Positions 1,146 to 14,143 of a stretch of 18,101 nucleotides of DNA are shown here, in pieces. The translations under genes were made by a program, and so were the position numbers. Origin of the DNA: Opitutales bacterium (GTDB lineage: Bacteria > Verrucomicrobiota > Verrucomicrobiia > Opitutales > UBA9783). Location of the stretch: the NCBI GenBank assembly GCA_024407725.1, contig JAKSVZ010000015.1, forward strand, positions 1-18,101, read 5' to 3'. The stretch's first letter is position 1; each line of letters begins with the position of its first letter. A model generated the notes under the pieces. The model worked only from the letters and a program-made list of their open reading frames with translations. It was not told the origin of the DNA and searched no databases.

Positions 1146-1216
1146 ACAGTCGCTAACCTCTATTGGTTGTGTAAAAAATTGACGCTTTTAACAGGAAGCA
1201 TTACCCTAAAAGTGCT

Positions 1217-1522
1217 ATGTGTGATTGCAATTTAGGGAATGTAGGAAGCACGTTGGTGGGGCGAAAAGCTCCTGATTTTGCAGCGACAGCGGTGGTTAAT
1301 GGAGGCGAAATTGTTGAAAACTGGTCGCTGGGTCAATTTTTTGGTAAAAAATACATTGTATTGTTTTTTTATCCCAAAGATTTTACGTTTGTGTGTCCGA
1401 CGGAACTGCATGCGTTGCAGCATGTTGAGCAGTATGGTGAAGTGTGCCCCATTGATTGGCATAAAGGGGATCAGGCGATGACTCCGAATACCGATGGGCT
1501 CCATCGCTATTTTAGTAAATGA
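1217..1522 (+). pseudogene. 2-Cys peroxiredoxin (AhpC/Tsa family) remnant with a large in-frame internal deletion
   Basis: The N-terminal part is canonical Prx (LVGRKAPDF...[22 protein letters not shown], with the peroxidatic Cys). It joins directly to the canonical C-terminal tail ([25 protein letters not shown]...YFSK, with the resolving Cys). The product is 101 aa, whereas this family is typically about 195 aa. The central thioredoxin-fold core is missing. Confidence 0.75.
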
Positions 1523-3732
1523 CTGATCGGGATCAGCGGAATTTATTTTGTACTGAGGTTGGTCGAAACTTTTCAGTTATTGCACCCGCAGGGGTTGGAA
1601 AGACTACTGCGTTGGTCGATCGCATTGCCTGCCTAGCAAATCAGAACCCAGAGAAATTAACGCATTTATATGTGCTGTCTTATACGAATGAGGCGGCAGC
1701 GTCGTTAGAGCAGCGCGTTCGGAAGCGGATAGGTGGTAATTCCAACGCTCAATATCAGCTTGCTTGCCTTAAACAGGGTTTTTTTGGGACGATTCATAGC
1801 TTGTGTTTGAAGGTGATTGGGGCATTGGATCCAACCCCCTATGCGTTGTTGACGGATGAGGATGGTTTAAAGCATGCGTTCATGGAATCCCTCACAACGT
1901 CGGATCCGGATTTAGCTAAGTTTAACCATTTGTTTCGTTTTTGGGAGCTTCGGGAATTGATAACCGGTACCCATAATCGTTTTTTATCCTCAAAAGCCAA
2001 CGATCCATCCAGCGATTCCTTGGATTTAACGGTCGTTGAAGATTTGCTGAAGTATGAATGGCATAAAGCGCCTCAGCGGTCTCAAGCTGCGATTAAAAAA
2101 ACACTGGATGAAGTAGGCAATTGGTTAAAAGCCTATCGGCAAACAACCCAATCGATGGCTTACGTAGGACTGCCCCTCTGTCATTCGAGTTATAAGGACT
2201 TTAAACCCCTGTTTGATAATGCTTTTCGCCCCTTTTTGATTCGATTAGAAGCAGAGGCAGTAGCTTGCTGTCGCATCCTGTCGGAGCGTTATTTCCAATT
2301 TCGGAAAGCCCATGGGTATTTAAGCTATGATGATTACAGTGTGTGGGCGAACCGTTGCCTTCAAACTCAAAAAGCAAAGGAGTATTATGGTACGCAGCCG
2401 GTTAATATCTTGTTAGATGAGGCGCAGGATACGGATCCTTTGCAGTTTGAATTCTTGGAAACCTTCTGTTCCTTACACCCAGAGAGTCAATTTTCTATGG
2501 TTGGCGATCCGCAACAGTCGATTTACGATGAGCGGGCGGATGTAAAAAGTTATTTAGCCTATCATCAGCAATTAACTAGCTCCAAAGCATGCGAAGCGTT
2601 AACGTTTTCCTGTACCCATCGCTGTCCTCCGGCGCTCATCAACCCCCTCAACAAACGTTTTCCAAAGATTTTTGATGGAGCCAATAATGTGCCCTATGTA
2701 TCATTGGAAACGGATGTGAATGTTTCGGGTACGTTTAAGCCGATTGCTATGGATCCAGAGGTTAATGCTGAACATGCGACTCAACAGGAGGCTCAATGTA
2801 TTGAGAAGCTCTTACAGGGGCCATTAAAAGGCCATGCTTTATCCGATATCTGCTTGTTGGTTCCTCGGAAAGCTTGGCTGTACGAACTCAAGCAAGCGCT
2901 TGAATTGTTGGGGCGAAAGGTGCAGCTGCATTCTACCCAAGAAACAGGGCGCTATAATCCCCTTTTTTGTGCCTGCTTAACGCTTATTCATGGTATTCAT
3001 ACGCCGGAAGATACCTTTGAGTCGATGGGGCTCTTGCATACGGTGTTGCATTGTCCCGATTGTGATTTGGCGTATGAAGCACGGCAATCGGATAGGGTAC
3101 CCAACGAAACACGCAAGAAAATAGATAACGTGAAGGCATTGGTTCACGATTGCGCTGATTTGTCGCTTTGCGAGGGTCTAGAACGACTCATCGACACACT
3201 TAAGGAGCTTTGTCCGCCAAGCGACCACGATGCGTATTTTATCGATAAAATCTTTTCAGAAGCCTTTGAGGCGCAGCAACAGGGGCAATCATGGGCCAGC
3301 TTAGAACTGCGTTTGCGTTCCTTTTTGGATCAATCGATGGATGCAGGGGTTACGGTTGATCCCAATGCCTTACAGGGGTTCACCTATCACAAAGCAAAGG
3401 GATTGGAATGGGGAACGGTTATCTTGCCTTATTTTTATCGTCCGTACCGAGGGGCTAATAAAAGCTATCCGTACGTCCATCGCACGCATTGTATCTTAAA
3501 TTCATCGTTCGTGGATGCAGCATCCCCCCTCGTGGATGTGAAAGGGGATGAGAAGCGCAACCTACAACGGTTGTTGTACGTAGCCCTTACGCGAGCAAAA
3601 ACGAATTGTTTTTGGGTCAATGACGCACACGTTAAATGTGGGCGAGATGGAACGAGCGAGTGGAACGAAAGCCTATCCTTCGGTAGCCTTTGGGATGAGG
3701 GAACCCCCAAACAGAATGAGGGCGCAAGCTAG
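1519..3732 (+). CDS. Superfamily 1 UvrD/Rep/AddA-like DNA helicase with no C-terminal nuclease domain
   Basis: Motifs seen: Walker [10 protein letters not shown], Ia [65 protein letters not shown]. Only about 45 aa follow motif VI. The start ATG overlaps the upstream stop codon (ATGA at 1519-1522). Confidence 0.85.
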
Positions 3733-3735
3733 CGT

Positions 3736-5112
3736 TTATTTTTTCTTCATCCAATAAAGGGTACGCAGGCTTCCAGGAATAGCTTGCTTTGCCTCAATAG
3801 AAAAGAAGGATTCGAATGAACGTTCGAAGTGTTCCTGCGTGTATTCATCAAAAACATCCTTACGGTTGAGCAACATTTCTTGGATTTTGCTGTCTTCTTT
3901 CGGGATAAATTCAATGATGATGGCATTGAACAGATCGGCGAAATAGGAAGCCAATGCTCCAAAAGGAACGTTGTTTCCGATGGCCAAATGATGGATAAGC
4001 GCCAAGATAAGTCCGCAGTCGGCAGGACCGCGTTGATGCAACGCCAAACGTTCTTGATTAGCCCAACCGATTCCGCCGCTAGGATTGGTTAAATCGAGCT
4101 GTAACGGCAATAAGTTGGTTTCTTGCGTTTTTTTGATGGTTAGGTAATTTTTCTCAACCGCCAGTGGGTCGATATCAAAGGCAACCGTTGGAATACCCTT
4201 GGTGCTCGCCAATCGACTGAAATTTCCATTGTTGGCTCCTAAATCCCAGACGGTTTTAGGGTTGATGGTTTGCAAGAATTGGTCTACCAATTTGGTCTTT
4301 TCGTCAAAGCTGTGTTCGTTGTAATTCGTTGTGGCGTAGTAATTGCCCCACTCGGTAGGTGCTTTCTTAGGTTTGATACCCCCAATGGCCATTTGCAAAG
4401 CATCCATCAACTTGAGCATTTTTTCTTTCGGTAGCGTGCGTTGAACCTTTTTACGGTGCGCGGAATATTTTTGCGTCGCACTGTAGGGAAGCTTAACGTA
4501 CAGCCAATAATTGAGCGACAGCCATTTGCGGTTGGGCAACAGCGTATAAATAACATCCTCAGGAATACCATCAATCCACAGCCGTAACAGTTGATTCGCG
4601 CGCAAATCAACCATCTGCATGAGCATGAGCGGATACAGGAAATGGCGTAAGAATTGACCAAACGCAATCCATGGGTTGGGCTCAAACCGTTCAAACGATA
4701 GGGTGTCAATAAAGATCGGTTTTCCGTTTACAAATTGAATGTTGTACGCACTGGCGTCTTTTAATGAAAAGCCCCATTCCACCAACTGCTTTTGGAGGGC
4801 TAAGGTATGAAGGGCTGCGTCTTTCAATTGACTAAACGACCATTCGTAGGGATATGAGATGAAAGGGATTTTTTCTGCCTCTAAATCAATATGATCCTCG
4901 CCGTAATAAACTTCTTTGTGCGGAACCAGAAAGCCTTGTTCAATGAGCTTATCATAAACCCGTTCAGCTTTAAGCGCATCATAAGTTTCTTTGTAACAAG
5001 GGTTGATGCGTCGGTAAATGCGTCCGTTGGCGCTAAATACGAATCCACTAGGATCGCGAAAAGATCCGGTATTTTGTTGTTCATTCATGCTTGAGGAACT
5101 CATATCAGCCAT
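3736..5112 (-). CDS. Class I SAM-dependent methyltransferase with a large N-terminal domain of unknown function; substrate unknown
   Basis: 458-aa ORF. The C-terminal half has Rossmann methyltransferase motif I (VWDLGANNGNFSRLA), followed by the acidic post-I motif VAFDID. The N-terminal region of about 270 aa (FRDPSGFVF..., YPYEWSF) has no motif I can assign. The gene converges on the helicase gene with a 3-nt gap. Confidence 0.7.
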   Translation of the reverse strand: MADMSSSSMNEQQNTGSFRDPSGFVFSANGRIYRRINPCYKETYDALKAERVYDKLIEQGFLVPHKEVYYGEDHIDLEAEKIPFISYPYEWSFSQLKDAALHTLALQKQLVEWGFSLKDASAYNIQFVNGKPIFIDTLSFERFEPNPWIAFGQFLRHFLYPLMLMQMVDLRANQLLRLWIDGIPEDVIYTLLPNRKWLSLNYWLYVKLPYSATQKYSAHRKKVQRTLPKEKMLKLMDALQMAIGGIKPKKAPTEWGNYYATTNYNEHSFDEKTKLVDQFLQTINPKTVWDLGANNGNFSRLASTKGIPTVAFDIDPLAVEKNYLTIKKTQETNLLPLQLDLTNPSGGIGWANQERLALHQRGPADCGLILALIHHLAIGNNVPFGALASYFADLFNAIIIEFIPKEDSKIQEMLLNRKDVFDEYTQEHFERSFESFFSIEAKQAIPGSLRTLYWMKKK

Positions 5113-5170
5113 TAAAATTATTTAAACAGCGACGGCAACGTTTAAATGCCCTGATGAGGTTGAATTTCAA

Positions 5171-5199
5171 TTGCATTTCCCAAAGTGTGTGATTACAAT
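5171..5199 (+). promoter_or_regulatory. Sigma70-like promoter: TTGCAT, 17 nt spacer, TACAAT
   Basis: The -35 TTGCAT is at 5171-5176, the spacer is exactly 17 nt, and the -10 TACAAT is at 5194-5199. The ATG of the downstream ORF is at 5209, so the predicted leader is only a few nt and there is no Shine-Dalgarno. Confidence 0.4.
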
Positions 5200-5208
5200 T
5201 AAAATATT

Positions 5209-5502
5209 ATGAATGAATTAATCGATTCGCTTTTACCTTTGTGGCAAGAATATCAAGCGCTTATCATCCTGATTGCAGGCTTAATTATTATGTTGATGGG
5301 GTGGCTGTTGGTTCGCAAACCCTGCTGTTGCCGGATCAATCGTTCGGATGCAATCAATGTTGTTGATGTAAAGAGTTTAGGCGGCCGAAAATTCCTGATG
5401 ATTGTTGGTTGCGGACAACAGAAAGTGTTGTTGGCGGTAGAGCCGAACGGCATCCATTACCTATGCTCATTAGGAAACGATGGGAAAACAGAAAGTAAGT
5501 AG
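5209..5502 (+). CDS. Small single-pass membrane protein, FliO-like
   Basis: 97 aa. One TM helix (ALIILIAGLIIMLMGWLLV) is followed by INVVDVKSLGGRKFLMIVGCGQQKVLLAVEPNGIHYLCSL. This parallels the E. coli FliO core (LKISASASLGARERVVVVDVEDARLVLGVTAGQINLLHKL), which I recalled from memory. Confidence 0.45.
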   Translation: MNELIDSLLPLWQEYQALIILIAGLIIMLMGWLLVRKPCCCRINRSDAINVVDVKSLGGRKFLMIVGCGQQKVLLAVEPNGIHYLCSLGNDGKTESK

Positions 5503-5536
5503 TCGCATGGCGCAAGATTTGATAAAATAAAAGCAT

Positions 5537-6592
5537 ATGATCAATAAGCATATTCAACAGTTTTTGGAAGCCGACAAAGGGCATTTAACCCAGCATGTAT
5601 GCCGTACCATCCCAAAAGAAAAGTTGGCATTGCCAGGTCCAGATTTCGTGGATCGGGTATGTGTTCATAGCAATCGCTCCAGTCGGGTTTTACAAAGCTT
5701 AAGCAGCATCCGGAACCATGGGCGCTTGGCAGGAACCGGCTATGTTTCGATTTTGCCGGTTGATCAAGGAATCGAACACTCAGCGGGAGCCAGTTTTGCC
5801 CCCAATCCTGATTATTTTGATCCGGAAAATCTTGTGCGTTTAGCCATCGAAGGCGGATGCAACGCCATTGCATCGACCTACGGAGTGCTTGCAAGTGTCG
5901 CGCATAAGTATGCTCATAAAATTCCGTTTATTGTTAAGTTGAATCACAACGAATTGCTGACCTATCCCAATAAGTTTGATCAGATTTATTTTGCCGATGT
6001 CGATCAGGCGTGGAATTTAGGCGCAGTGGCAGTGGGTGCAACGATTTATTTTGGTTCTGCTGAATCAGATCGCCAAATTGAAGAAACCAGCGCGGCTTTT
6101 GCTCGGGCTCATGAATTGGGTATGGCAACCATCCTATGGTGCTATTTACGCAATGGTTCTTTTAAGACAGACAAACAAGATTATCATACCAGTGCCGATT
6201 TAACCGGTCAGGCGAACCATTTAGGGGTGACCATCGGAGCGGATATCGTAAAACAAAAATTGCCAACCAACAATGGGGGTTTTCGCGATTTGAAGTTTGG
6301 TAAAACGCACGATAAGGTTTATAGCGAGTTAACCTCGGAGCACCCGATTGACTTAACCCGTTATCAAGTCGCCAATTGCTATATGGGGCGCATCGGATTG
6401 ATTAATTCTGGAGGAGCTTCGGGAGCTAATGATTTTCAGGATGCGATTACTACAGCAGTGGTTAACAAACGCGCAGGCGGTAGCGGATTAATCTTAGGAC
6501 GTAAGGCGTTCCAAAAGCCGTTTGCAGAAGGGGTTGAACTGCTTCACACCGTGCAGGATGTCTATTTGGATTCATCCATCACGATTGCCTAA
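5537..6592 (+). CDS. fbaB: Class I fructose-bisphosphate aldolase, DhnA/FbaB type
   Basis: 351 aa, collinear along its full length with E. coli FbaB as I recall it. Shared stretches include [76 protein letters not shown] and a [12 protein letters not shown]-terminus. Confidence 0.92.
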
Positions 6593-6605
6593 AAAAGTAT
6601 TTGAG

Positions 6606-6688
6606 GGGGAAATTTAGCATTGTAGCAGTGGGGTTGAACCTATCAGGTTGGCAACCCAACGCATTAGCACCTATTAATTTCCCCTTTT
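6606..6688 (+). terminator. Long compound hairpin followed by a T-run; candidate fbaB terminator or structured element at the islet border
   Basis: The outer 9-bp stem pairs GGGGAAATT (6606-6614) with AATTTCCCC (6676-6684), followed by TTTT (6685-8). Nested inside are GGGTTG (6631-6) paired with CAACCC (6652-7), and AACCT-atc-AGGTT (6637-6649). Confidence 0.4.
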
Positions 6689-6773
6689 GAAAAAGTCACA
6701 CATCGCCTAAAAACCCTTAGGTGTTGATTTGTATCGATTTTTTCGACGGAACCAAATGATTGTTATGCCTCCG

Positions 6774-7388
6774 TTATTTAATAATGCTCTTTAAAAATTC
6801 TTTGGTTAAGTCTTTGGATGAAATAACTCTAGGGTTTGTGTTTAAATAAGGATTGGTGTTAATAACCTTAACTGTTTTATGATTGGATAATGCAAATTCC
6901 GTTTCTCTTGTTGAACTAGTAAATTTTTCAACTAGTAAGGCACTAATTACTTTTTGCTCGTAAGGTATCCAAAGATTTTGGTCACCCTATTTAAGGGTTA
7001 ATTTATCTTCAATGCCTTCTGTTGCTTTGTTTTTGTTTGAAACAACAGAAGCAGACTTTTTTATAATCAAATTTTTCAATAAGATGAAATCACAGGCAAC
7101 ATCTGCCATGATAAACCAAGCGGTGAGATTGGTAGGATCAATTAAATTGATAAGAATAATAAAATTATAAAATCTTTTTTGTTTCCCCTTAACAAAACCA
7201 GAACTAATTAAATAGTTTTTGACACGATCATAATCATGCAAGTGTAAATCCTTGGCTTCCTGAATCTTTTTTTGGAAATTAGTTAATTGATTGTTCGATA
7301 ATTTAAGCTGTACTATTGCTTTTAAAATGCTGTAAAAAAGCGAATTTGATTCGTAATCTGCGGTATCGATAGGGGATTGATCTTCCAT
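6774..7388 (-). pseudogene. 204-codon ORF interrupted by one in-frame TAG; candidate decayed restriction endonuclease partner of the adjacent C5 methyltransferase
   Basis: Track ORF 6987..7388 (133 aa) ends at a TAG (6987-6989). My translation of the next 70 codons in the same frame is open (GDQNLWIPYEQKVISALLVEKFTSSTRETEFALSNHKTVKVINTNPYLNTNPRVISSKDLTKEFLKSIIK) and runs to a TAA at 6774-6776. The gene is very A+T-rich, on the same strand as the methyltransferase and immediately downstream of it. Confidence 0.55.
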
Positions 7389-7463
7389 AGATACATTTTC
7401 TTAAATGGTATTTGCAGTTAGAGCAATGTTAACCACGTTTGGCACTATTGCCTATGTATGAAA

Positions 7464-8402
7464 TCAATCAATTTCTCCGCCCGTTTTTAAAGCGTCAATT
7501 AGATTATTAGCGACTGCCTCTATCATTTTTGTAGGAACTGAATTCCCAAATTGTTTATAGCATTGTACGTCGCTAACGACTAATTTAAAGTCATCGCCAA
7601 AACCTTGTAATCTTGCGGCTTCACGAGGAGTAAGTTTTCTAGGATTTCTATCTTGTTGTTCTACGAGTATTTCAGACCCATCTTTATAATATCGGGCTGA
7701 GATCGTGCTCGTATAAACGGAATGTTCATTAAATAAGCTGTACCCAAAACCATTTCCTTTAGCTTTGTGTTGCTCTTTTCTCCTTCGAAGGCTTGCCCAA
7801 ATCCTATCAGAAATCGTGTATTTAGGGTCAACATTGTTTTCTAATATATCTCCTAATTTTGTAGGAATGCCTGTTGGTTTAGGAAATTCAAATTCAATAT
7901 GATGATTCTTAAAGCCTACTAAAATAATTCTTTCTCTATTTTGAGGAACACCGAAATCTTTTGCGTTTAATACTTGATAATGTAATTGATATCCTAATTT
8001 ATTTTCGAGGATAGTTTTCATAACCTTAAAGGTATTACCTTTATCGTGGCTTAATAAACCTTTTACGTTTTCAAGCATAAAAGCTTTTGGTTTGTGATAT
8101 TCTAGGATTCTTTCTATCTCGAAAAACATCGTTCCTCGGGTGTCATTAAACCCTTTTCTTTTGCCAGCGATAGAAAACGCTTGGCAAGGAAAGCCGGCTA
8201 ATAGGATATCAAAGCTAGGGATGTCTTTTGCATCGATTTGTGTTATATCCCCACTAGGGATTTCTCCCCAGTTAGCCTTGTAAGTTTGAATGGCAAATTT
8301 ATCTATTTCAGAAGAAAAGACGCAGGTGCCTCCAAGTTTTTGATAAGGACGTCTAATGCCCCCAATACCAGCAAAAAGATCGATAAATTTAAACTTTGCC
8401 AT
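7464..8402 (-). CDS. DNA (cytosine-5)-methyltransferase, apparently intact
   Basis: All the conserved C5-methyltransferase motifs I looked for are present: I DLFAGIGG, IV GFPCQAFS, VI MLENVKG, VIII VPQNRERI, X QFGNSVP. The TRD contains KGNGFGY...SARYYKDGSEILV, which reminds me of CCGG-type (HpaII/MspI-like) methylases. I cannot verify that specificity. Confidence 0.92.
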   Translation of the reverse strand: MAKFKFIDLFAGIGGIRRPYQKLGGTCVFSSEIDKFAIQTYKANWGEIPSGDITQIDAKDIPSFDILLAGFPCQAFSIAGKRKGFNDTRGTMFFEIERILEYHKPKAFMLENVKGLLSHDKGNTFKVMKTILENKLGYQLHYQVLNAKDFGVPQNRERIILVGFKNHHIEFEFPKPTGIPTKLGDILENNVDPKYTISDRIWASLRRRKEQHKAKGNGFGYSLFNEHSVYTSTISARYYKDGSEILVEQQDRNPRKLTPREAARLQGFGDDFKLVVSDVQCYKQFGNSVPTKMIEAVANNLIDALKTGGEID

Positions 8403-8537
8403 TTTTTAATATTTAATCTGTTAAACAATGTTTAAAAGTTAATTTTCTTAATGATTTAAATAATTCCACCAAAACGCAAAAACTAGTTTGTAAGAAGTAT
8501 AGCTCTGCGGGAATTTTTTATCACTAAACGAACCTAG

Positions 8538-8613
8538 TGGCAGGGAAAGTGGGATTCGAACCCACGACCTTCGGTTTAGAAAACCGTTGCTCTATCCACT
8601 GAGCTATTTCCCC
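8538..8613 (-). tRNA. tRNA-Arg (anticodon UCU), CCA encoded
   Basis: Hand-folded cloverleaf from the reverse complement: GGGGAAA-TA-GCTC-AGTGGATA-GAGC-A-ACGGT-TTTCTAA-ACCGA-AGGTC-GTGGG-TTCGAAT-CCCAC-TTTCCCT-G-CCA. It has a G1-U72 wobble and one 27-43 mismatch. Confidence 0.85.
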
Positions 8614-8631
8614 AGTTTACTAAACGAAAAA

Positions 8632-8706
<75 letters not shown>

Positions 8707-8822: not shown

Positions 8823-8897
8823 GCCCTCATAGTTCAAGGGATAGAACCGCGGTTTCCTAAACCGTTAATCCCAGTTCGAGTCTGGGTGCGGGCGCCA
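8823..8897 (+). tRNA. tRNA-Arg (anticodon CCU), CCA encoded
   Basis: GCCCTCA-TA-GTTC-AAGGGATA-GAAC-C-GCGGT-TTCCTAA-ACCGT-TAAT-CCCAG-TTCGAGT-CTGGG-TGCGGGC-G-CCA. There is one U5-C68 mismatch in the acceptor stem. Confidence 0.85.
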
Positions 8898-8919
8898 TAG
8901 GAATAGGGCGCGAATCAAA

Positions 8920-9459
8920 GTGATGATTTTAAGAAGAAAGCTATTGGTTTTTTTGTGCTTCGGCCTTCTCCCGTTGATGTTGAAGGGGGTTGATCAGGCT
9001 CCTGTCCCAATGGTGATTGAAGATATCCATTGGGTGTATCGCAAGGATGACGATTTTAAAGGCATTGTTGAGGCGATTCGGGAGCAAGAAACCCAGCTTG
9101 ATCGCGTAATCGTTCGATCAGATGCGCACAAGCGGGAAGGGTTATACTTAATCATTAAATTCAACCGTTGGTTATCCACCATTCCGGAAGCCAGTAGGAT
9201 CCAAATCACCTTTATTATCAGCCCAGCTTTGGATGATCAAACGTGCGAACTTAGTTTGGAATACACGGGACATTTCATTTTCCCGCAAAACGAATTGTGG
9301 GTTGGGCTTACCGATGAAGCATTTTTAGGTCAATTGGATGATTCAGGGGTGCTGGAGCGCGTTAAAGAGCATCGCAAGGGTTATTTAACGGCTTGGCAAG
9401 CTCATGTCTTTGACCCAGATGGGAAGTGTATTGGGTACGGAGAAAGCTACGCTTGGTAA
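8920..9459 (+). CDS. Hypothetical secreted or periplasmic protein
   Basis: 179-aa ORF with an N-terminal signal-like segment (RRKLLVFLCFGLLPLMLKG). I recognise no catalytic motif. Its composition matches the backbone. Its stop lies 2 nt before the likely priA start. Confidence 0.6.
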   Translation: MMILRRKLLVFLCFGLLPLMLKGVDQAPVPMVIEDIHWVYRKDDDFKGIVEAIREQETQLDRVIVRSDAHKREGLYLIIKFNRWLSTIPEASRIQITFIISPALDDQTCELSLEYTGHFIFPQNELWVGLTDEAFLGQLDDSGVLERVKEHRKGYLTAWQAHVFDPDGKCIGYGESYAW

Positions 9460-9461
9460 GC

Positions 9462-11621
9462 ATGTTCTATTTGTCCATCTTGCCTATCCGTTCGTTGGCA
9501 CGCTCCTTAACGTATACAGCGGCAGAGCCTATTCCGGTAGGTAGTTTGGTAACCATTAGCATTAGGGGTCGCCGAGCGTATGGATTGGTAGAAGCTTGTG
9601 AGACCCAACCTCCCGCCGAACAACTGACGTTGTTGCCCATTGAACAACGCGTGTATGATTTCCCGATTGTAACCGCTGAAAACCTGCAGGTAATTCAATG
9701 GATCAGCCGCCGTTATGCCTGTCCGCTCAATTCGGTTTTAGAAAGTGCGCTGCCTGCTTTTATCCGCCAAGGGAAAGCGTTAACGCAAACGGCGTATTTA
9801 TGCCCCAATGAGGAACCGACAGCAGCCATTCCAAAGCGTGCGACCCATCAGCAGGCTGTGTATGATTGGGTCTGTCAGCATCCGTTTGCAGAAGAGCGAG
9901 CGCTTCATCAAGCGATTGCGAATGCCCATGCTGCGTTGCGTCAATTGATTGCGTCTCATAGGGTTCGGCGGGTCTTTGAGCGGCCACCGGAAGCGAAACC
10001 ATCGAACCCTATTACCTTAACGCAGGAACAGCAAGCGATTACGGATGCCCTAACGCGTGCCCTTCAGAGTCGAACCTATGCAACCCATTTACTCTATGGG
10101 GTAACTGGGTCAGGGAAAACGGAGCTTTACCATGCACTGATTGCGCAGGCAAGGCGTTTGGGGTTACAGACGCTCTATTTGGTTCCAGAAATTGCGTTGT
10201 CGGAACAAGCTCTATCCAAATTGCAGCAACGGTTGGCGTCGCAAGCCATTCGGGTGGGGGTATGGCATAGCTTAAGCACTGAAAAAGAAAAGAAAGCCCT
10301 TTGGCAGAAAGTGTTAACGGGTACGTGTGATGTGGTGTTGGGAACGCGTTCTGCTTTGTTTTTGCCTTTTAAACGTTTAGGGTTGATTTTGGTAGATGAG
10401 GAGCAGGATGCGTCGTATAAACAATCCGAGGTTCCGCGTTATCATGGGCGTGATTTAGCTATTTACCGAGCTCAACTGCATCAGGCGTTATGTGTGTTGG
10501 GGTCTGCTACGCCATCGATTGAAACTTGGCATCAGGTGAAAAAAGATGCCTATGCACTGCATACCTTATGGAAGCGCCCAAATCAGGCGAGCGTTCCAAC
10601 CATTCAGTTTGTGGATATGCACTACGAAAAACCGTCGTTTGAGGGGGCGTATGTGCTGTCGGATTTGTTGCGGCAAAAAATCAACGCGCGTTTGGATCGC
10701 AAAGAACAAACCTTGTTATTTTTGAACCGCCGAGGCTATGCGCCTTATCTGTATTGCCCTAAATGCGCACGACGGATTGAGTGTCCCTATTGCAAAAGCA
10801 CGCTGGTGTTTCATAAGGCGGATGCCAGCTTTCGGTGCCATGTGTGCCAACATCAGGTAACGGCCTATACCCATTGTGCCCATTGCCATAGCCCGTTGAA
10901 GTTAAGCAGGGGGTTAGGTACGCAACGGGTGGAAGCGGGTTTGAAAAAATTGTATCCAAATGTGCGGATTTTAAGGCTAGATACGGATAATCGGGAACAG
11001 CAGCCTCATTGGTATGAGGCGATTATGAGCCATCAATGCGATATCATCATTGGGACGCAGCTATTGGCCAAGGGAATGGACTTCCCAGATTTAACCTTGG
11101 TGGGGGTGTTGCAACTTGATACGCCGGCGCTCATAGAGGATTTTCGTGCATCTGAGCGTATTTTTCAATTGCTTGTGCAGGTTAGCGGGCGTGCAGGACG
11201 TTTGCGTTCCGGTAGCGAAGTGGTGGTTCAAACCTTTGCGCTCAATGACCCGTGTATCGATTTTGTAAAAAAACAGGATACCATCGGCTTTCTCAATCAA
11301 GAATGGGCGTTAAGGGAACGGTACCGCTATCCGCCGTTTCGCACCATGGTTCGTCATGTGTTTCGGAGTTTATCAGAACCCTTGGTGGATTATACCGTCA
11401 AGCAATGGAGTGCGTTTTTAGAGCAAAAAGCACCGGAAACGTGGGAAATTTTAGGTCCCTCTGCGCCCTTCATCAGCAAGGCTAACCGTTATTATCGGCG
11501 GCATCTGCTTTATCTGGGCGAGGACGATTTCGTGCCCCAATTGCAAGCCTTGCGGTCGGAATTTAAAACGCCGCCAGAGGTAATCGATTTGTTGGACGTA
11601 GATCCGGTTGATTTTCGTTAA
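9462..11621 (+). CDS. priA: Primosomal protein N' (replication restart helicase PriA)
   Basis: Walker A GVTGSGKTE, a DEEQD box, and the Cys-rich zinc-binding insert CPKCARRIECPYCKSTLVFHKADASFRCHVCQHQVTAYTHCAHCHS. The C-terminal helicase motifs are QLLAKGMDFPDLTLVGV and QVSGRAGR. I chose the ATG at 9462 (MFYLSILP...). The track start at 9426 would overlap the upstream gene. Confidence 0.9.
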   Translation: MFYLSILPIRSLARSLTYTAAEPIPVGSLVTISIRGRRAYGLVEACETQPPAEQLTLLPIEQRVYDFPIVTAENLQVIQWISRRYACPLNSVLESALPAFIRQGKALTQTAYLCPNEEPTAAIPKRATHQQAVYDWVCQHPFAEERALHQAIANAHAALRQLIASHRVRRVFERPPEAKPSNPITLTQEQQAITDALTRALQSRTYATHLLYGVTGSGKTELYHALIAQARRLGLQTLYLVPEIALSEQALSKLQQRLASQAIRVGVWHSLSTEKEKKALWQKVLTGTCDVVLGTRSALFLPFKRLGLILVDEEQDASYKQSEVPRYHGRDLAIYRAQLHQALCVLGSATPSIETWHQVKKDAYALHTLWKRPNQASVPTIQFVDMHYEKPSFEGAYVLSDLLRQKINARLDRKEQTLLFLNRRGYAPYLYCPKCARRIECPYCKSTLVFHKADASFRCHVCQHQVTAYTHCAHCHSPLKLSRGLGTQRVEAGLKKLYPNVRILRLDTDNREQQPHWYEAIMSHQCDIIIGTQLLAKGMDFPDLTLVGVLQLDTPALIEDFRASERIFQLLVQVSGRAGRLRSGSEVVVQTFALNDPCIDFVKKQDTIGFLNQEWALRERYRYPPFRTMVRHVFRSLSEPLVDYTVKQWSAFLEQKAPETWEILGPSAPFISKANRYYRRHLLYLGEDDFVPQLQALRSEFKTPPEVIDLLDVDPVDFR

Positions 11622-11661
11622 TTTTTTAGGGTTAAGGCGCTTGTCGGGTATACATAACGCT

Positions 11662-12966
11662 TTATTTGCCACCCTTCTTTCGATTGCAATTCCGGCAGAG
11701 CATTTGTAGGTTGTCGTAGGTTGTGCGTCCGCCCTTGCAAACAGGCTTTATGTGATCGCCTTCCATTTCATTAAAGGCAAACTCTTCGTGGCAATACGCG
11801 CATTTATGCTTTTGTTCTTTATACTTCCTCAGTTTGTCTTCTTGCTTAAAAGCACGAATTGTTAGGAGAGCCCCTGCTGCCTTAATATCATCCTCGTATT
11901 CATCCTGAGTGAGTTTGTTGTTTTTTAGTAGCTCGTCCAATCTGTACTTCTCCAAAAGATACTTATAGGCTTTTTTATCCTTAACCTCATTGCCATTGTC
12001 TTCTTTTAGATTGTTCCAAAGCTCTTCTAGGTCTTTTCTAACCTGTTTGGAGTCTAGCTTAGGAAGGTTATCTTTGTAGTCATTATAATATAGACCCCAT
12101 GGAAGACCTTTGGTAAGGTTTTGTTCGGCATCCTCTATGTCTATGACCCCAAAAATGGATCGTGCCCAATTTGCAACATTCTCAAAATACTGAATTAATT
12201 CATGAGCGTCTGCATCTTTTTGATGATCGTGCATATACTGTACTATTCTAGCATCAGCTTGCTCATTTTCTTGATATTTTTTGGCGCTTATCCAACCCAA
12301 TACCGTTTCTAAGTAATCTTGTCTAAGGGGATCTCCTTTTAAATAATATCCTCCTGCTTTATCGGCGGGATTATCTGTTTTTTTGATCGAAAAATAGCTT
12401 TTTGCGCTCGTTAACCACGAACCCGTATAAGAAGCGTTGCGAATTTCTTGCTCGGTCAAGCGTTCTCCTTGAATATTTGCAGTTTTAAACCACTTAATTT
12501 TTTCCTCTGCAGTTCCTTCTAATACATAAATCTGTAATTTATCATAATTCCTGATTTTATTTTGAGTCGTTGGATCTAATCCTGCGAATGACTTGGGGTT
12601 GGTTTTATTGGGGTTCTGTGGATCTTCTGGGATTTCAACAGAAAAATCACTTATATTTCCGTTTGCTGCTTTGCTTCCTATGACATAGGAACAAATAGAT
12701 AACATCCGTTGTTGCCCATCTAATAGTTCGTAAACGCTAGGCTCTTCATCGCTTTTAGCCCAATACATAGTACCAAGTGGTAAATCACCAAGGATAGTAT
12801 AAATGACAGCTTTTTGCTGTTCTAGCTTATAACAAAATTCTCGTTGATACTTCGGGCGGATTATTAATTTACCACCCAAAGCCCTAACCTCATCATTATT
12901 TGGGTCTTGCGTATATCCTTCGACTAAGTTTCTTATTGTAGTATCTTGTTTTAGTGTAGCTTTCAT
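11662..12966 (-). CDS. DUF262 (ParB/Srx-like, GmrSD N-terminal type) domain fused to a C-terminal HNH zinc-finger endonuclease
   Basis: DUF262 hallmarks are present: RPKYQREF near the N-terminus, DGQQR (encoded at 12706-12720) and WFKTANIQGERLTEQEIRNA. The last 48 aa or so form an HNH beta-beta-alpha-Me finger, CAYCHEEF...EGDHIKPVCKGGRTTYDNLQMLCRNCNRKKG (11665-11808). The start ATG overlaps the stop of the upstream methyltransferase (ATGA at 12963-12966). Confidence 0.85.
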   Translation of the reverse strand: MKATLKQDTTIRNLVEGYTQDPNNDEVRALGGKLIIRPKYQREFCYKLEQQKAVIYTILGDLPLGTMYWAKSDEEPSVYELLDGQQRMLSICSYVIGSKAANGNISDFSVEIPEDPQNPNKTNPKSFAGLDPTTQNKIRNYDKLQIYVLEGTAEEKIKWFKTANIQGERLTEQEIRNASYTGSWLTSAKSYFSIKKTDNPADKAGGYYLKGDPLRQDYLETVLGWISAKKYQENEQADARIVQYMHDHQKDADAHELIQYFENVANWARSIFGVIDIEDAEQNLTKGLPWGLYYNDYKDNLPKLDSKQVRKDLEELWNNLKEDNGNEVKDKKAYKYLLEKYRLDELLKNNKLTQDEYEDDIKAAGALLTIRAFKQEDKLRKYKEQKHKCAYCHEEFAFNEMEGDHIKPVCKGGRTTYDNLQMLCRNCNRKKGGK

Positions 12967-13664
12967 ACTTGCTTCTGGATTTGTTTTTTGTGGCGGATAA
13001 GGATACGGGCGTACGGTACAGTTACAATTCCGTCTTTCAGATAGTACAAATCTCCATCGACTGTGCCTCTTTTTTGTATTTCTTTGCGGTATTTTCGATG
13101 TTCGGGTTTATAAGGTTTTACCCCAATCGATAAACCTAAATTGGCGATTCCGAGCCCAATAATCTCGAACTGCTTTGGGCAATACTTTTTCAAAAAGGTA
13201 ATCGGTACGCCCATAACGCCGTCATAGCCGTACGGGATATCCTTTACCTTGCCGACCTCAATGGCGTCGTAATTATCGTACTTGGGGTACTTTTCAGGGG
13301 TATAAACGCAATTTTTGTTTAACCCATGTTCTTTAGTCCGCTTTTTATGGGGTAGGTTCGTGAACCAACAGACCCCTTTGTTTTTGACAAAGCCTTTAGC
13401 GGGATCGTATCCCTTTGAACGCACATATTTTGCGTTTTCCGGAAGAGTGTTTGGATACGCTGTTTTAAAAATCATTGTGCAATTAAACCCTTCCCCAACC
13501 CATAGCTTGTTGTCCTTAATCAGGGGAAAGATCTCTTTATAGGTAATGGCATTTAGATTGCCAATGATGAGGAACTTTTTGTTGTACGCTATGAGTTGAG
13601 CGACATACTCGCGAAACAACGAAAAGGGCGGATTAGTGACCACAATATCTGCTTCCTTTAGCAA
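12963..13664 (-). pseudogene. C-terminal catalytic fragment of an N6-adenine DNA methyltransferase (EcoRI-methylase-like family), separated from its N-terminus by a frameshift
   Basis: It contains catalytic motif IV, VVTNPPF (NPPF encoded at 13623-13634). The track M at 13664 is a TTG. The frame stays open upstream through the repeat (…FDSRERERE-YNQLPYSDLDESFKIPLKGNGDFRSDECIELLKEADIVVTNPPFSLFREY) and back to a TGA near 13850, with no ATG in that stretch. Confidence 0.8.
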
Positions 13665-13726
13665 CTCGATGCATTCGTCGCTACGGAAATCCCCATTACC
13701 TTTGAGGGGGATTTTAAAACTTTCGT

Positions 13727-14062
13727 CTAGATCAGAATAAGGGAGTTGGTTATACTCTCTCTCTCTCTCTCTAGAGTCAAAGCGTAGGACGGCTTGCCGG
13801 TTGGTTCGTAGTGCGTAGCAATGAGCTTTTTTAACCCTAAAGTGGGAAAATCATCCTTAAAATACTTCCAAAAATTGCTTTCATCCGGATCGTCACAATT
13901 TAAAAAGACGGTTTTATCTTTAAAATGCATATGATAATGCTTGAGTTCTTCGTTTATATCATTCATCTGCGTATAGAATTCATCATTCTTGGCATTTTTG
14001 GCTGCTATTAAGGCCGTGTTACGTTTAACATTTGACGTATCGTTATCCATGAAATGACTCAC
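13727..14062 (-). pseudogene. N-terminal fragment of the same N6-adenine DNA methyltransferase, terminated 9 codons after the repeat tract
   Basis: KNDEFYTQMNDINEELKHYHMHFKDKTVFLNCDDPDESNFWKYF...GLKKLIATHYEP matches the N-terminal signature I recall for the EcoRI-methylase-like family. The frame runs into (AG)9 (LERERE), then SITNSLILI and a stop. The start is a GTG at 14062 or an ATG at 14050, only 4-16 nt from the tRNA-His 3' end. Confidence 0.8.
13755..13772. repeat. Perfect dinucleotide simple sequence repeat, (CT)9 on the plus strand and (AG)9 on the coding strand
   Basis: Read directly: ata-ctctctctctctctctct-agag. It lies inside the methyltransferase coding sequence, exactly where the reading frame breaks. 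Confidence 0.97.
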
Positions 14063-14066
14063 TTTA

Positions 14067-14143
14067 TGGGGTGGTAGACCGGGCTTGAACCGGCAACCCT
14101 CGGAACCACAATCCGATGCTCTGCCAATTGAGCTACAACCACC
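14067..14143 (-). tRNA. tRNA-His (anticodon GUG) with the extra 5' G(-1), CCA encoded
   Basis: Reverse complement: G-GTGGTTG-TA-GCTC-AATTGGC-AGAGC-A-TCGGA-TTGTGGT-TCCGA-GGGTT-GCCGG-TTCAAGC-CCGGT-CTACCAC-C-CCA. G(-1) pairs with C73, which is the His hallmark. Confidence 0.9.

Follow-up and report, generated by a model that had tools for sequence, protein, structure and literature searches.

A repeat-switchable EcoRI-family adenine methylase and its adjoining DUF262-HNH nuclease in an Opitutales genome belong to a widespread, catalogued restriction-modification family

The stretch of DNA considered here (the window; 18,101 bp) comes from an environmental metagenome-assembled genome (MAG) of the Opitutales (Verrucomicrobiota). 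Between the end of priA (position 11621) and a tRNA-His gene (14067-14142) lies a block of two minus-strand genes, the first encoding an adenine DNA methylase of the EcoRI family and the second a nuclease that joins a DUF262 domain to an HNH domain. An earlier reading of the bare sequence (the sequence-only reading) described the block as a candidate module of the restriction-modification (R-M) type, in which a repeat-switchable adenine methylase, OFF as sequenced, is followed in one operon by an intact DUF262-HNH nuclease, the two genes overlapping in an ATGA at 12963-12966. That description holds. The gene pair is not a new one: the locus is a repeat-switchable representative of a methylase-nuclease family that is widespread and had been catalogued before. 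All features of the pair are on the minus strand, and coordinates given without a locus number are those of the window.

The methylase gene, which would encode an N6-adenine DNA methyltransferase, occupies 12963-14062. Its probable start is the ATG at 14050 (alternatively, the GTG at 14062) and its TGA stop is at 12963-12965. As sequenced, the gene consists of two open reading frame (ORF) fragments in different frames, one running from 14062 to 13727 (111 residues) and the other from 13664 to 12963 (233 residues), the latter containing the NPPF catalytic motif IV (13623-13634). The frame is lost at a perfect (AG)9 slippage tract (13755-13772), which appears as (CT)9 on the plus strand and encodes the peptide ..LERERE.. 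at about codons 93-99. This site is the end of a strand leading into a poorly conserved loop of variable length between the N-terminal domain and the GDGDFRS motif. A tract of this kind, an 18-nt perfect dinucleotide run, has a chance expectation of 0.00 according to 200 shuffles that preserved dinucleotide composition. Translation in the (AG)9 frame ends after a 10-codon out-of-frame tail at a premature TAG (13727-13729) located 761 nt upstream of the nuclease ATG, close to the distance of about 760 nt given by the sequence-only reading.

Altering the repeat in silico by minus one or plus two units, to (AG)8 or (AG)11, produces a single ORF of 361 residues, and the frame arithmetic of the earlier reading was thus correct. 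One additional unit, (AG)10, leads to an immediate stop and is OFF like (AG)9. The repaired methylase matches the Pfam profile EcoRI_methylase (PF13651) over positions 2-345 of 345 (E 5e-122; 407.9 bits, with a gathering cut-off of 26.4) and retains 95 of 95 family-invariant columns, on both sides of the break, in an alignment of 21 members (A2). The sequenced (AG)9 allele itself lacks the uninterrupted frame expected of a PF13651 methylase. The tract has the property that defines simple repeats in phase-variable R-M systems, namely that changes in unit number within the methylase gene flip the frame between ON and OFF, and the case for a switch is strengthened because (AG)9 is the sole lesion in an otherwise conserved gene. 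The sample has also been assembled independently (Logan SRR17543914, L087), and that assembly does not differ from the window over 8841-14116, (AG)9 included, so the OFF frame is not an artefact of one assembler. The state of the tract comes from this one sample, with (AG)9 in both assemblies and no close relatives to compare.

Three further features of the methylase gene lie downstream of the break. An in-frame GTG (13641-13643) that follows AAGGAAG is a possible restart codon for a C-terminal fragment of 226 residues (gene call P0121). Two variable modules come after it, VR1 (residues about 186-227; 13368-13493), which takes discrete forms across the family, and VR2 (residues about 299-345; 13014-13154), a swappable cassette followed by the conserved ending Y-A-R-I-L-I-R.

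The nuclease gene (11662-12966; 434 residues) is intact as assessed by Pfam, PADLOC, conservation and a structure model. The N-terminal DUF262 or GmrSD_N domain (PF03235, a ParB-like nucleoside triphosphatase (NTPase); residues 35-180, 12427-12864, E 1e-19) contains the DGQQR motif that is conserved in the family (residues 83-87, 12706-12720). The C-terminus is an HNH domain of PF01844/PF14279 (PF01844 at residues 389-432, 11671-11802) with a Cys4 zinc site and D-H-N-N catalytic residues, and no Pfam match to the DUF1524 (EHxxP) nuclease domain was found in this protein. The nuclease retains 72 of 72 invariant columns of a 28-member alignment (A1), including DGQQR, the four zinc cysteines and D404, H405, N419 and N428. 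Its structure model is confident (predicted local distance difference test score (pLDDT) of 85), and structure comparison places BrxU first and SspE second among the nearest solved folds. In a sequence search of the PDB only the HNH domain of the nuclease was matched, and the methylase had no match. The window nuclease is an outlier of its family, being at most 50% identical to the loci compared and carrying about 70 extra residues (a typical member has about 364). The sequence upstream of its ATG is AAATCCAGAAGCAAGT, exactly as previously quoted, and the ATGA overlap with the methylase stop is the commonest junction in the family.

The family is already present in defence-system catalogues. 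The window methylase matches the PADLOC-DB model MTase_II PDLC03297 (E 3e-107) and the nuclease matches REase_II PDLC03418 (E 1e-72), the latter in two stretches because of insertions. Ordinary family nucleases match PDLC03418 over all 372 positions (E 1e-131 to 1e-168) and, judging from these full-length matches, the model is built from the DUF262-HNH nuclease family. The R-M models of PADLOC are derived from REBASE-based sets. Automated defence annotation would label the locus type II R-M, while the names used by NCBI are generic: "DUF262 domain-containing protein" or "HNH endonuclease family protein" for the nuclease and "adenine-specific methyltransferase EcoRI family protein" for the methylase. 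Among unclassified gold-standard methylases that were reassigned with profiles such as EcoRI_methylase, only M.SsoI, which is identical to M.EcoRI, was experimentally validated (preprint 10.1101/2023.12.13.571470).

Homologous loci were compared in two sets, 80 seeded with the nuclease (species-representative genomes from many phyla) and 80 seeded with the methylase (metagenomes); individual loci are cited below by their L numbers. A neighbourhood search for pairs of an EcoRI-methylase-like gene and a DUF262-HNH gene, as the sequence-only reading had suggested, revealed near-constant adjacency. In 73 of the 75 nuclease-seeded loci with upstream room, the gene immediately before the nuclease, in the same orientation, encodes an EcoRI-family methylase, and the nuclease lies downstream of the methylase in 60 of the 66 methylase-seeded loci with room. 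The earlier claim that no system with this gene pair had been described is therefore not sustained, since both proteins match PADLOC type II models and the pair is a recurrent unit. Prior cataloguing had been named in advance as an outcome that would count against the proposal, and the pair is indeed catalogued, at the catalogue level of PADLOC-DB. No description of the EcoRI-family methylase and DUF262-HNH pair, or of its repeat switches, was found in the open-access literature searched, and it is the phase variation in this family, together with the evidence for a generic nuclease, that appears to be undescribed there.

The arrangement of the pair varies among the relatives. Of 74 junctions, 31 are overlaps (about 20 of them ATGA), 16 are gaps of 1-11 nt and 26 are gaps of 19-3578 nt, some of which contain extra genes. 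The pair is found on 85 plasmids, including plasmids of 7-10 kb from lactic acid bacteria and enterococci, and is rare in phage genomes (7 of 50,697). One locus (L001), in a prophage, has a tandem pair of methylase genes ahead of the nuclease, and another (L144:1796-5205) has three tandem paralogous EcoRI-family methylase genes and no nuclease downstream. On the 8.6-kb plasmid pK205-4b-C of Enterococcus dispar (L089), the oxazolidinone/phenicol resistance gene optrA (1164-3131) is located between the methylase (61-1017) and the nuclease (3593-4699). RhuM-like ORFs, identified by eye only, occur beside or inside the operon at L016:3833-4510, L082:3561-4523, L086:189-836 and L093:4133-4759, with N-termini of the form ..IIIYxxxDGxxKIEVxxxxETVWLSQxQM...

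Repeats of various units occur in or beside the methylase gene in 9 of the 160 homologous loci, at three places. The same loop as in the window, at about codon 94, contains G9 in Adlercreutzia sp. ZJ176 (L057), where the gene is in frame. Immediately before VR2 are found (AG)12 (L059), (AG)11 (L020), (GAAGA)10 (L049), (ACAG)24 (L083) and G10 (L026). On the 5' side of the gene are (AGCC)19 in Neisseria perflava (L064), (AGCC)10 (L156) and (GGCTT)7-11 (L049 and L134). No repeat-encoded peptide runs were found among the 240 top protein matches. In N. perflava CCUG 17915 the (AGCC)19 tract (L064:3848-3923) precedes the methylase ATG by about 60 nt and a stop codon intervenes, so it does not act directly on the methylase frame and would have to act via the promoter, the 5' untranslated region or an upstream ORF. 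AGCC is also the repeat unit of modA in Neisseria and Haemophilus.

The relatives with a repeat before VR2 have an additional feature. All three frames past the repeat are open for 13-126 codons, and each ends in Y-x-R-I-x-I-R (L059:4765-4995; L049:1480-1780; L026:4590-4809; L020:1-249; L083:1391-1867). The alternative tails are homologous across phyla; frame 2 of L049 and frame 0 of L026, for example, are 58% identical over 64 residues (E 1e-20). This arrangement looks like a repeat-driven, three-way choice of the methylase C-terminal cassette from overlapping frames. Given the recurrence of several kinds of repeat in relatives' methylase genes, phase variation is, on this comparative evidence, a trait of the methylase family. 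A genuine phase-variation switch is strongly favoured as the reading of the window's (AG)9 because repeats recur in homologous methylase genes of other phyla. AG repeats switch an adenine methylase in Mycoplasma mycoides, where the mod gene of M.MmyCI carries 12 of them (PMC3498834).

The two proteins of the family differ in how they vary. The methylase consists of a conserved core and two blocks, VR1 and VR2, whose discrete types are unalignable and recombine freely; the VR2 type of the window is found with several VR1 types. The nuclease has no hypervariable block comparable to VR1 or VR2. Across 1,770 locus pairs, nuclease identity correlates with identity of the methylase core (r 0.48), with r of 0.09 for VR1 and 0.05 for VR2, and the regression coefficients for nuclease identity are 0.60 for the core and -0.015 for each of VR1 and VR2. 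A natural exchange is apparent between L038 (2902-3141) and L056, where DNA identity is 77-97% through both genes and falls to 8-47% only in a VR2 block of about 240 nt; identity is back to 97% at the nuclease start and the nucleases are 95% identical.

Intact nucleases are also found where the methylase is broken or absent. In L018 an intact nuclease (4986-6098) lies beside a methylase split at NPPFSL by a 1.8-kb insert (2645-4423) that contains a 515-residue ORF on the opposite strand and is probably an insertion sequence. In L013 the methylase next to an intact nuclease is frameshifted, and in L004-6, L082 and L086 an intact nuclease has no methylase nearby. These loci and the window depart from the expectation for a classical type II system, in which an active nuclease does not occur without its cognate methylase. 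The lack of a variable module in the nuclease, its lack of co-variation with VR1 or VR2 and the VR2 exchange tend to argue against a nuclease that recognises the methylase's target sequence independently, in the classical type II manner. There are precedents for DUF262 nucleases that work with modification systems. BrxU and SspE serve as the restriction arm of host-modification systems (PMC12707154), and COG1479/DUF262 domains fused to HNH were linked to modification systems in earlier comparative work (PMC3632139).

The explanation preferred here, held with even confidence, is that the locus is an acquired R-M operon in which an (AG)9-toggled, EcoRI-family N6-methyladenine (m6A) methylase is accompanied by a generic, methylase-dependent DUF262-HNH nuclease. 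Replication slippage by -1 or +2 AG units would toggle between a full-length methylase and a 117-residue stump, with OFF as the majority state in the sequenced population. Target specificity would reside in the methylase modules VR1 and VR2. The nuclease would be a generic NTPase-nuclease that lacks a module for reading sequence and, like the nucleases of type I and type III systems, most likely relies on the methylase for finding or licensing targets. In favour of such dependence, the nuclease has no variable module, does not co-vary with VR1 or VR2 and stays intact beside dead or absent methylases. A methylase that is OFF would then mean restriction that is OFF, so an intact nuclease would be tolerated beside a broken methylase. 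The ATGA junction and polarity (the last 760 nt being untranslated) would probably also reduce nuclease synthesis, as a secondary safeguard.

Several points weigh against this explanation. We infer switching at this locus, and the methylase-nuclease complex is a putative one. The methylases most closely related to that of the window share 59-63% identity with it and lack an (AG)n tract at the corresponding site, as do all of the 160 loci. The proposal that VR1 and VR2 set target specificity is drawn by analogy, and the AlphaFold model of a homologue of the same type (P0124; alignment A3) has a mean pLDDT of 66, and below 50 over residues 241-346, which is too poor to show how VR2 is positioned around the active site. 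Where the nuclease is solitary or its methylase is dead, protection could come from another methylase encoded elsewhere in the genome, or the lesions could be recent. Finally, the PADLOC type II label, if biochemically grounded, may imply independent sequence recognition by the nuclease.

In a second explanation, the nuclease is an autonomous, classical type II enzyme whose synthesis requires ribosomes to finish the methylase ORF, such that the repeat acts through the ATGA junction as a master translational switch. This explanation, which the sequence-only reading had put forward, is judged unlikely, although it is consistent with a number of observations. The overlap in the window is the modal junction of the family, the minus strand showed no promoter-like site from the methylase start to the nuclease start, the nuclease family bears the PADLOC label REase_II, and a premature stop 761 nt upstream makes polarity plausible. 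The missing Shine-Dalgarno sequence of the nuclease had been taken as a sign of coupling. However, all of the approximately 12 gene starts in the window lack a recognisable Shine-Dalgarno sequence and have A/T-rich upstream regions, so its absence at the nuclease start is uninformative on coupling. The same pattern suggests mostly Shine-Dalgarno-independent initiation in the source organism. Moreover, the GTG at 13643 with AAGGAAG upstream could restart translation, so ribosomes could reach the ATGA even in the OFF state. The relatives also speak against obligatory coupling. In 26 of 74 the two genes are separated by 19-3578 nt, in some cases with extra genes in between (RhuM-like genes; optrA on the Enterococcus plasmid), many relatives' nucleases have a clear AGGAGG of their own, and in the three-frame relatives each methylase frame has its stop at a different distance from the start of the nuclease gene, with only one of these stops near it. 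Nuclease sequences show no co-variation with the putative specificity modules of the methylase, and leaky expression of an autonomous restriction enzyme would kill an unmethylated cell. Thus, the overlap is real and typical of the family and some coupling is likely, but the master-switch role proposed for it fits poorly with the restart codon, the long gaps and the three-frame stops. Coupling and polarity probably reduce nuclease output in the OFF state, and it is unlikely that the survival of the cell depends on them.

A third explanation, that the R-M islet is decaying or domesticated, with the frameshift as an irreversible inactivating mutation and the repeat as an incidental feature, is distinctly improbable. 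It draws on the single known state of the tract, (AG)9 in two assemblies of one sample, on the lack of close relatives for comparison and on the dead methylases elsewhere in the family (L018 and L013). Against it, a perfect tract with a chance expectation of 0.00 coincides exactly with the only lesion of an otherwise perfectly conserved gene, repeats arose repeatedly in the methylase family, including in the same loop, and the nuclease is fully intact.

The sequence-only reading had also offered a modification-dependent nuclease as an alternative. In that case the nuclease would be a type IV enzyme, similar to GmrSD, directed at foreign modified DNA, and the methylase would have a separate role, for example as a phasevarion regulator. 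The DUF262 N-terminal domain with its intact DGQQR, the best structural match to BrxU (a type IV enzyme of the GmrSD family) and the existence of solitary intact nuclease copies make this conceivable. It is disfavoured by the near-obligate, same-strand adjacency to a methylase in both search directions, often with overlapping codons, which is hard to reconcile with unrelated functions. In addition, the C-terminal domain is a canonical HNH (PF01844) and not DUF1524, and there are small plasmids with just this pair, a typical habit of R-M cassettes. A modification-dependent nuclease is accordingly rated as highly doubtful. The least credible explanation, that the (AG)9 units were miscounted in sequencing or assembly of a gene that is truly in frame, appeals to the error-prone behaviour of repeats in library PCR and is very nearly dismissed by the same count in two assemblies and by an 18-nt tract well inside read length.

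If the preferred explanation of a switchable methylase and a dependent nuclease is extended to the family, the type II label would hide an uncharacterised class of R-M system. In such a class a uniform, GmrSD-like NTPase-HNH nuclease would be guided or licensed by an EcoRI-family methylase with two exchangeable target-setting modules, and repeats would either switch the system ON and OFF (the window and L057) or pick one of three C-terminal cassettes. This broader proposal is tentative and is advanced with less confidence than the account of the locus itself.

The known systems closest in logic are the type III mod-res systems (M.MmyCI with its 12 AG repeats, PMC3498834, and the ModA/ModH phasevarions). 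In these, a repeat in the coding region toggles the frame of an N6-adenine methylase, the restriction subunit is harmless without the methylase and the whole system is stochastically ON or OFF; for the window nuclease such dependence is only proposed. The components differ, since Mod is a beta-class methylase with a central target recognition domain whereas the window methylase is of the EcoRI family, and Res is a superfamily 2 helicase with a PD-(D/E)XK nuclease whereas the window has DUF262-HNH. By its domains the pair is not type III, and the logic alone may be shared. Repeat-mediated switching or specificity change outside type III is found in the type IIG enzyme Cj0031 of Campylobacter jejuni (PMC4889913) and in the repeats of type I hsdS/hsdM (PMC7383803). 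These place their functions in one polypeptide or a defined complex, whereas in the window the two genes are separate and are listed as type II. MhoVII of Mycoplasma hominis, whose type II methylase contains a TA repeat, was rejected as a counterpart because it is of another family (beta and alpha methylases with an AlwI-like nuclease).

By their domains, the two proteins are related to different systems. The nuclease resembles GmrSD, BrxU and SspE (DUF262-DUF1524) in its ParB-like DUF262 NTPase with DGQQR, its helical linker and its His-Me finger nuclease. It differs from them in having PF01844 HNH with Cys4 in place of the DUF1524 C-terminus, and its family is shorter (typically about 364 residues). 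GmrSD, BrxU and SspE are standalone or accompanied by BREX or Ssp genes, whereas nucleases of the window family are in an operon with a cognate m6A methylase, a linkage at odds with the absence of a cognate methylase that characterizes type IV enzymes of the GmrSD kind. The enterococcal TIV-RE (EF_B0059) was considered as a family member and excluded, being DUF262-DUF1524 instead. The methylase shares PF13651 and the NPPF catalytic motif with M.EcoRI of the type IIP EcoRI system. R.EcoRI, however, is an unrelated PD-(D/E)XK enzyme and M.EcoRI is not phase-variable; the window family, compared with EcoRI, has swappable methylase modules and a constant nuclease. Among the MTase_II and REase_II components of PADLOC, both window proteins find matches and both are outliers.

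Phase-variable methylases have been well studied in type I and type III systems of host-adapted pathogens. The present case concerns a pair of genes listed as type II, from a verrucomicrobial MAG of environmental origin. An intact, separate nuclease beside a switchable methylase would normally be a paradox, and the resolution suggested is that the nuclease borrows the specificity of the methylase. If true, a very widespread family, with thousands of members across phyla, plasmids and some prophages, has been mis-filed as ordinary type II, and it would provide a compact, reprogrammable, methylase-guided nuclease. The ON/OFF repeats and three-frame cassette switches would also add to the stochastic epigenetic switches already known. 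Should the nuclease be autonomous, the locus would be merely another phase-variable R-M system.

The setting of the pair in the window bears on its origin and expression. The G+C content of the block is 37-44% and that of the flanks is 47-50%, so the block looks like a small, horizontally acquired islet; no att-like direct repeats flanking it were found. The tRNA-His(GTG) gene (14067-14142, minus strand, ARAGORN) lies immediately before the methylase gene, whose start (GTG 14062 or ATG 14050) is only 4-16 nt past the 3' end of this same-strand tRNA and leaves no space for a promoter. The operon may therefore be transcribed by read-through from the tRNA-His gene, with translation of an almost leaderless mRNA. 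A search of the minus strand ahead of the methylase and of the nuclease revealed no sigma-70-like promoter, although verrucomicrobial promoters may deviate from the consensus.

Two other regions of the window deserve mention. A second islet of low G+C (31-36%) at 6600-8700 is located by a tRNA cluster (tRNA-Arg, 8538-8613; tRNA-Met, 8632-8706). A minus-strand gene there (7464-8402) encodes a C-5 cytosine DNA methylase that matches PF00145 (E 1e-105) and PADLOC MTase_II. Next to it comes a 133-residue ORF (6987-7388) with no family match, and the islet may be a further R-M remnant. At 1217-1522 there is a peroxiredoxin-like ORF of 101 residues that matches only positions 1-50 of 124 of AhpC-TSA, plus a 1-cysPrx_C tail, and that appears, from these partial matches, to be internally shortened or degraded. 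Its 3' end overlaps the start of a UvrD-like helicase gene (1519-3732).

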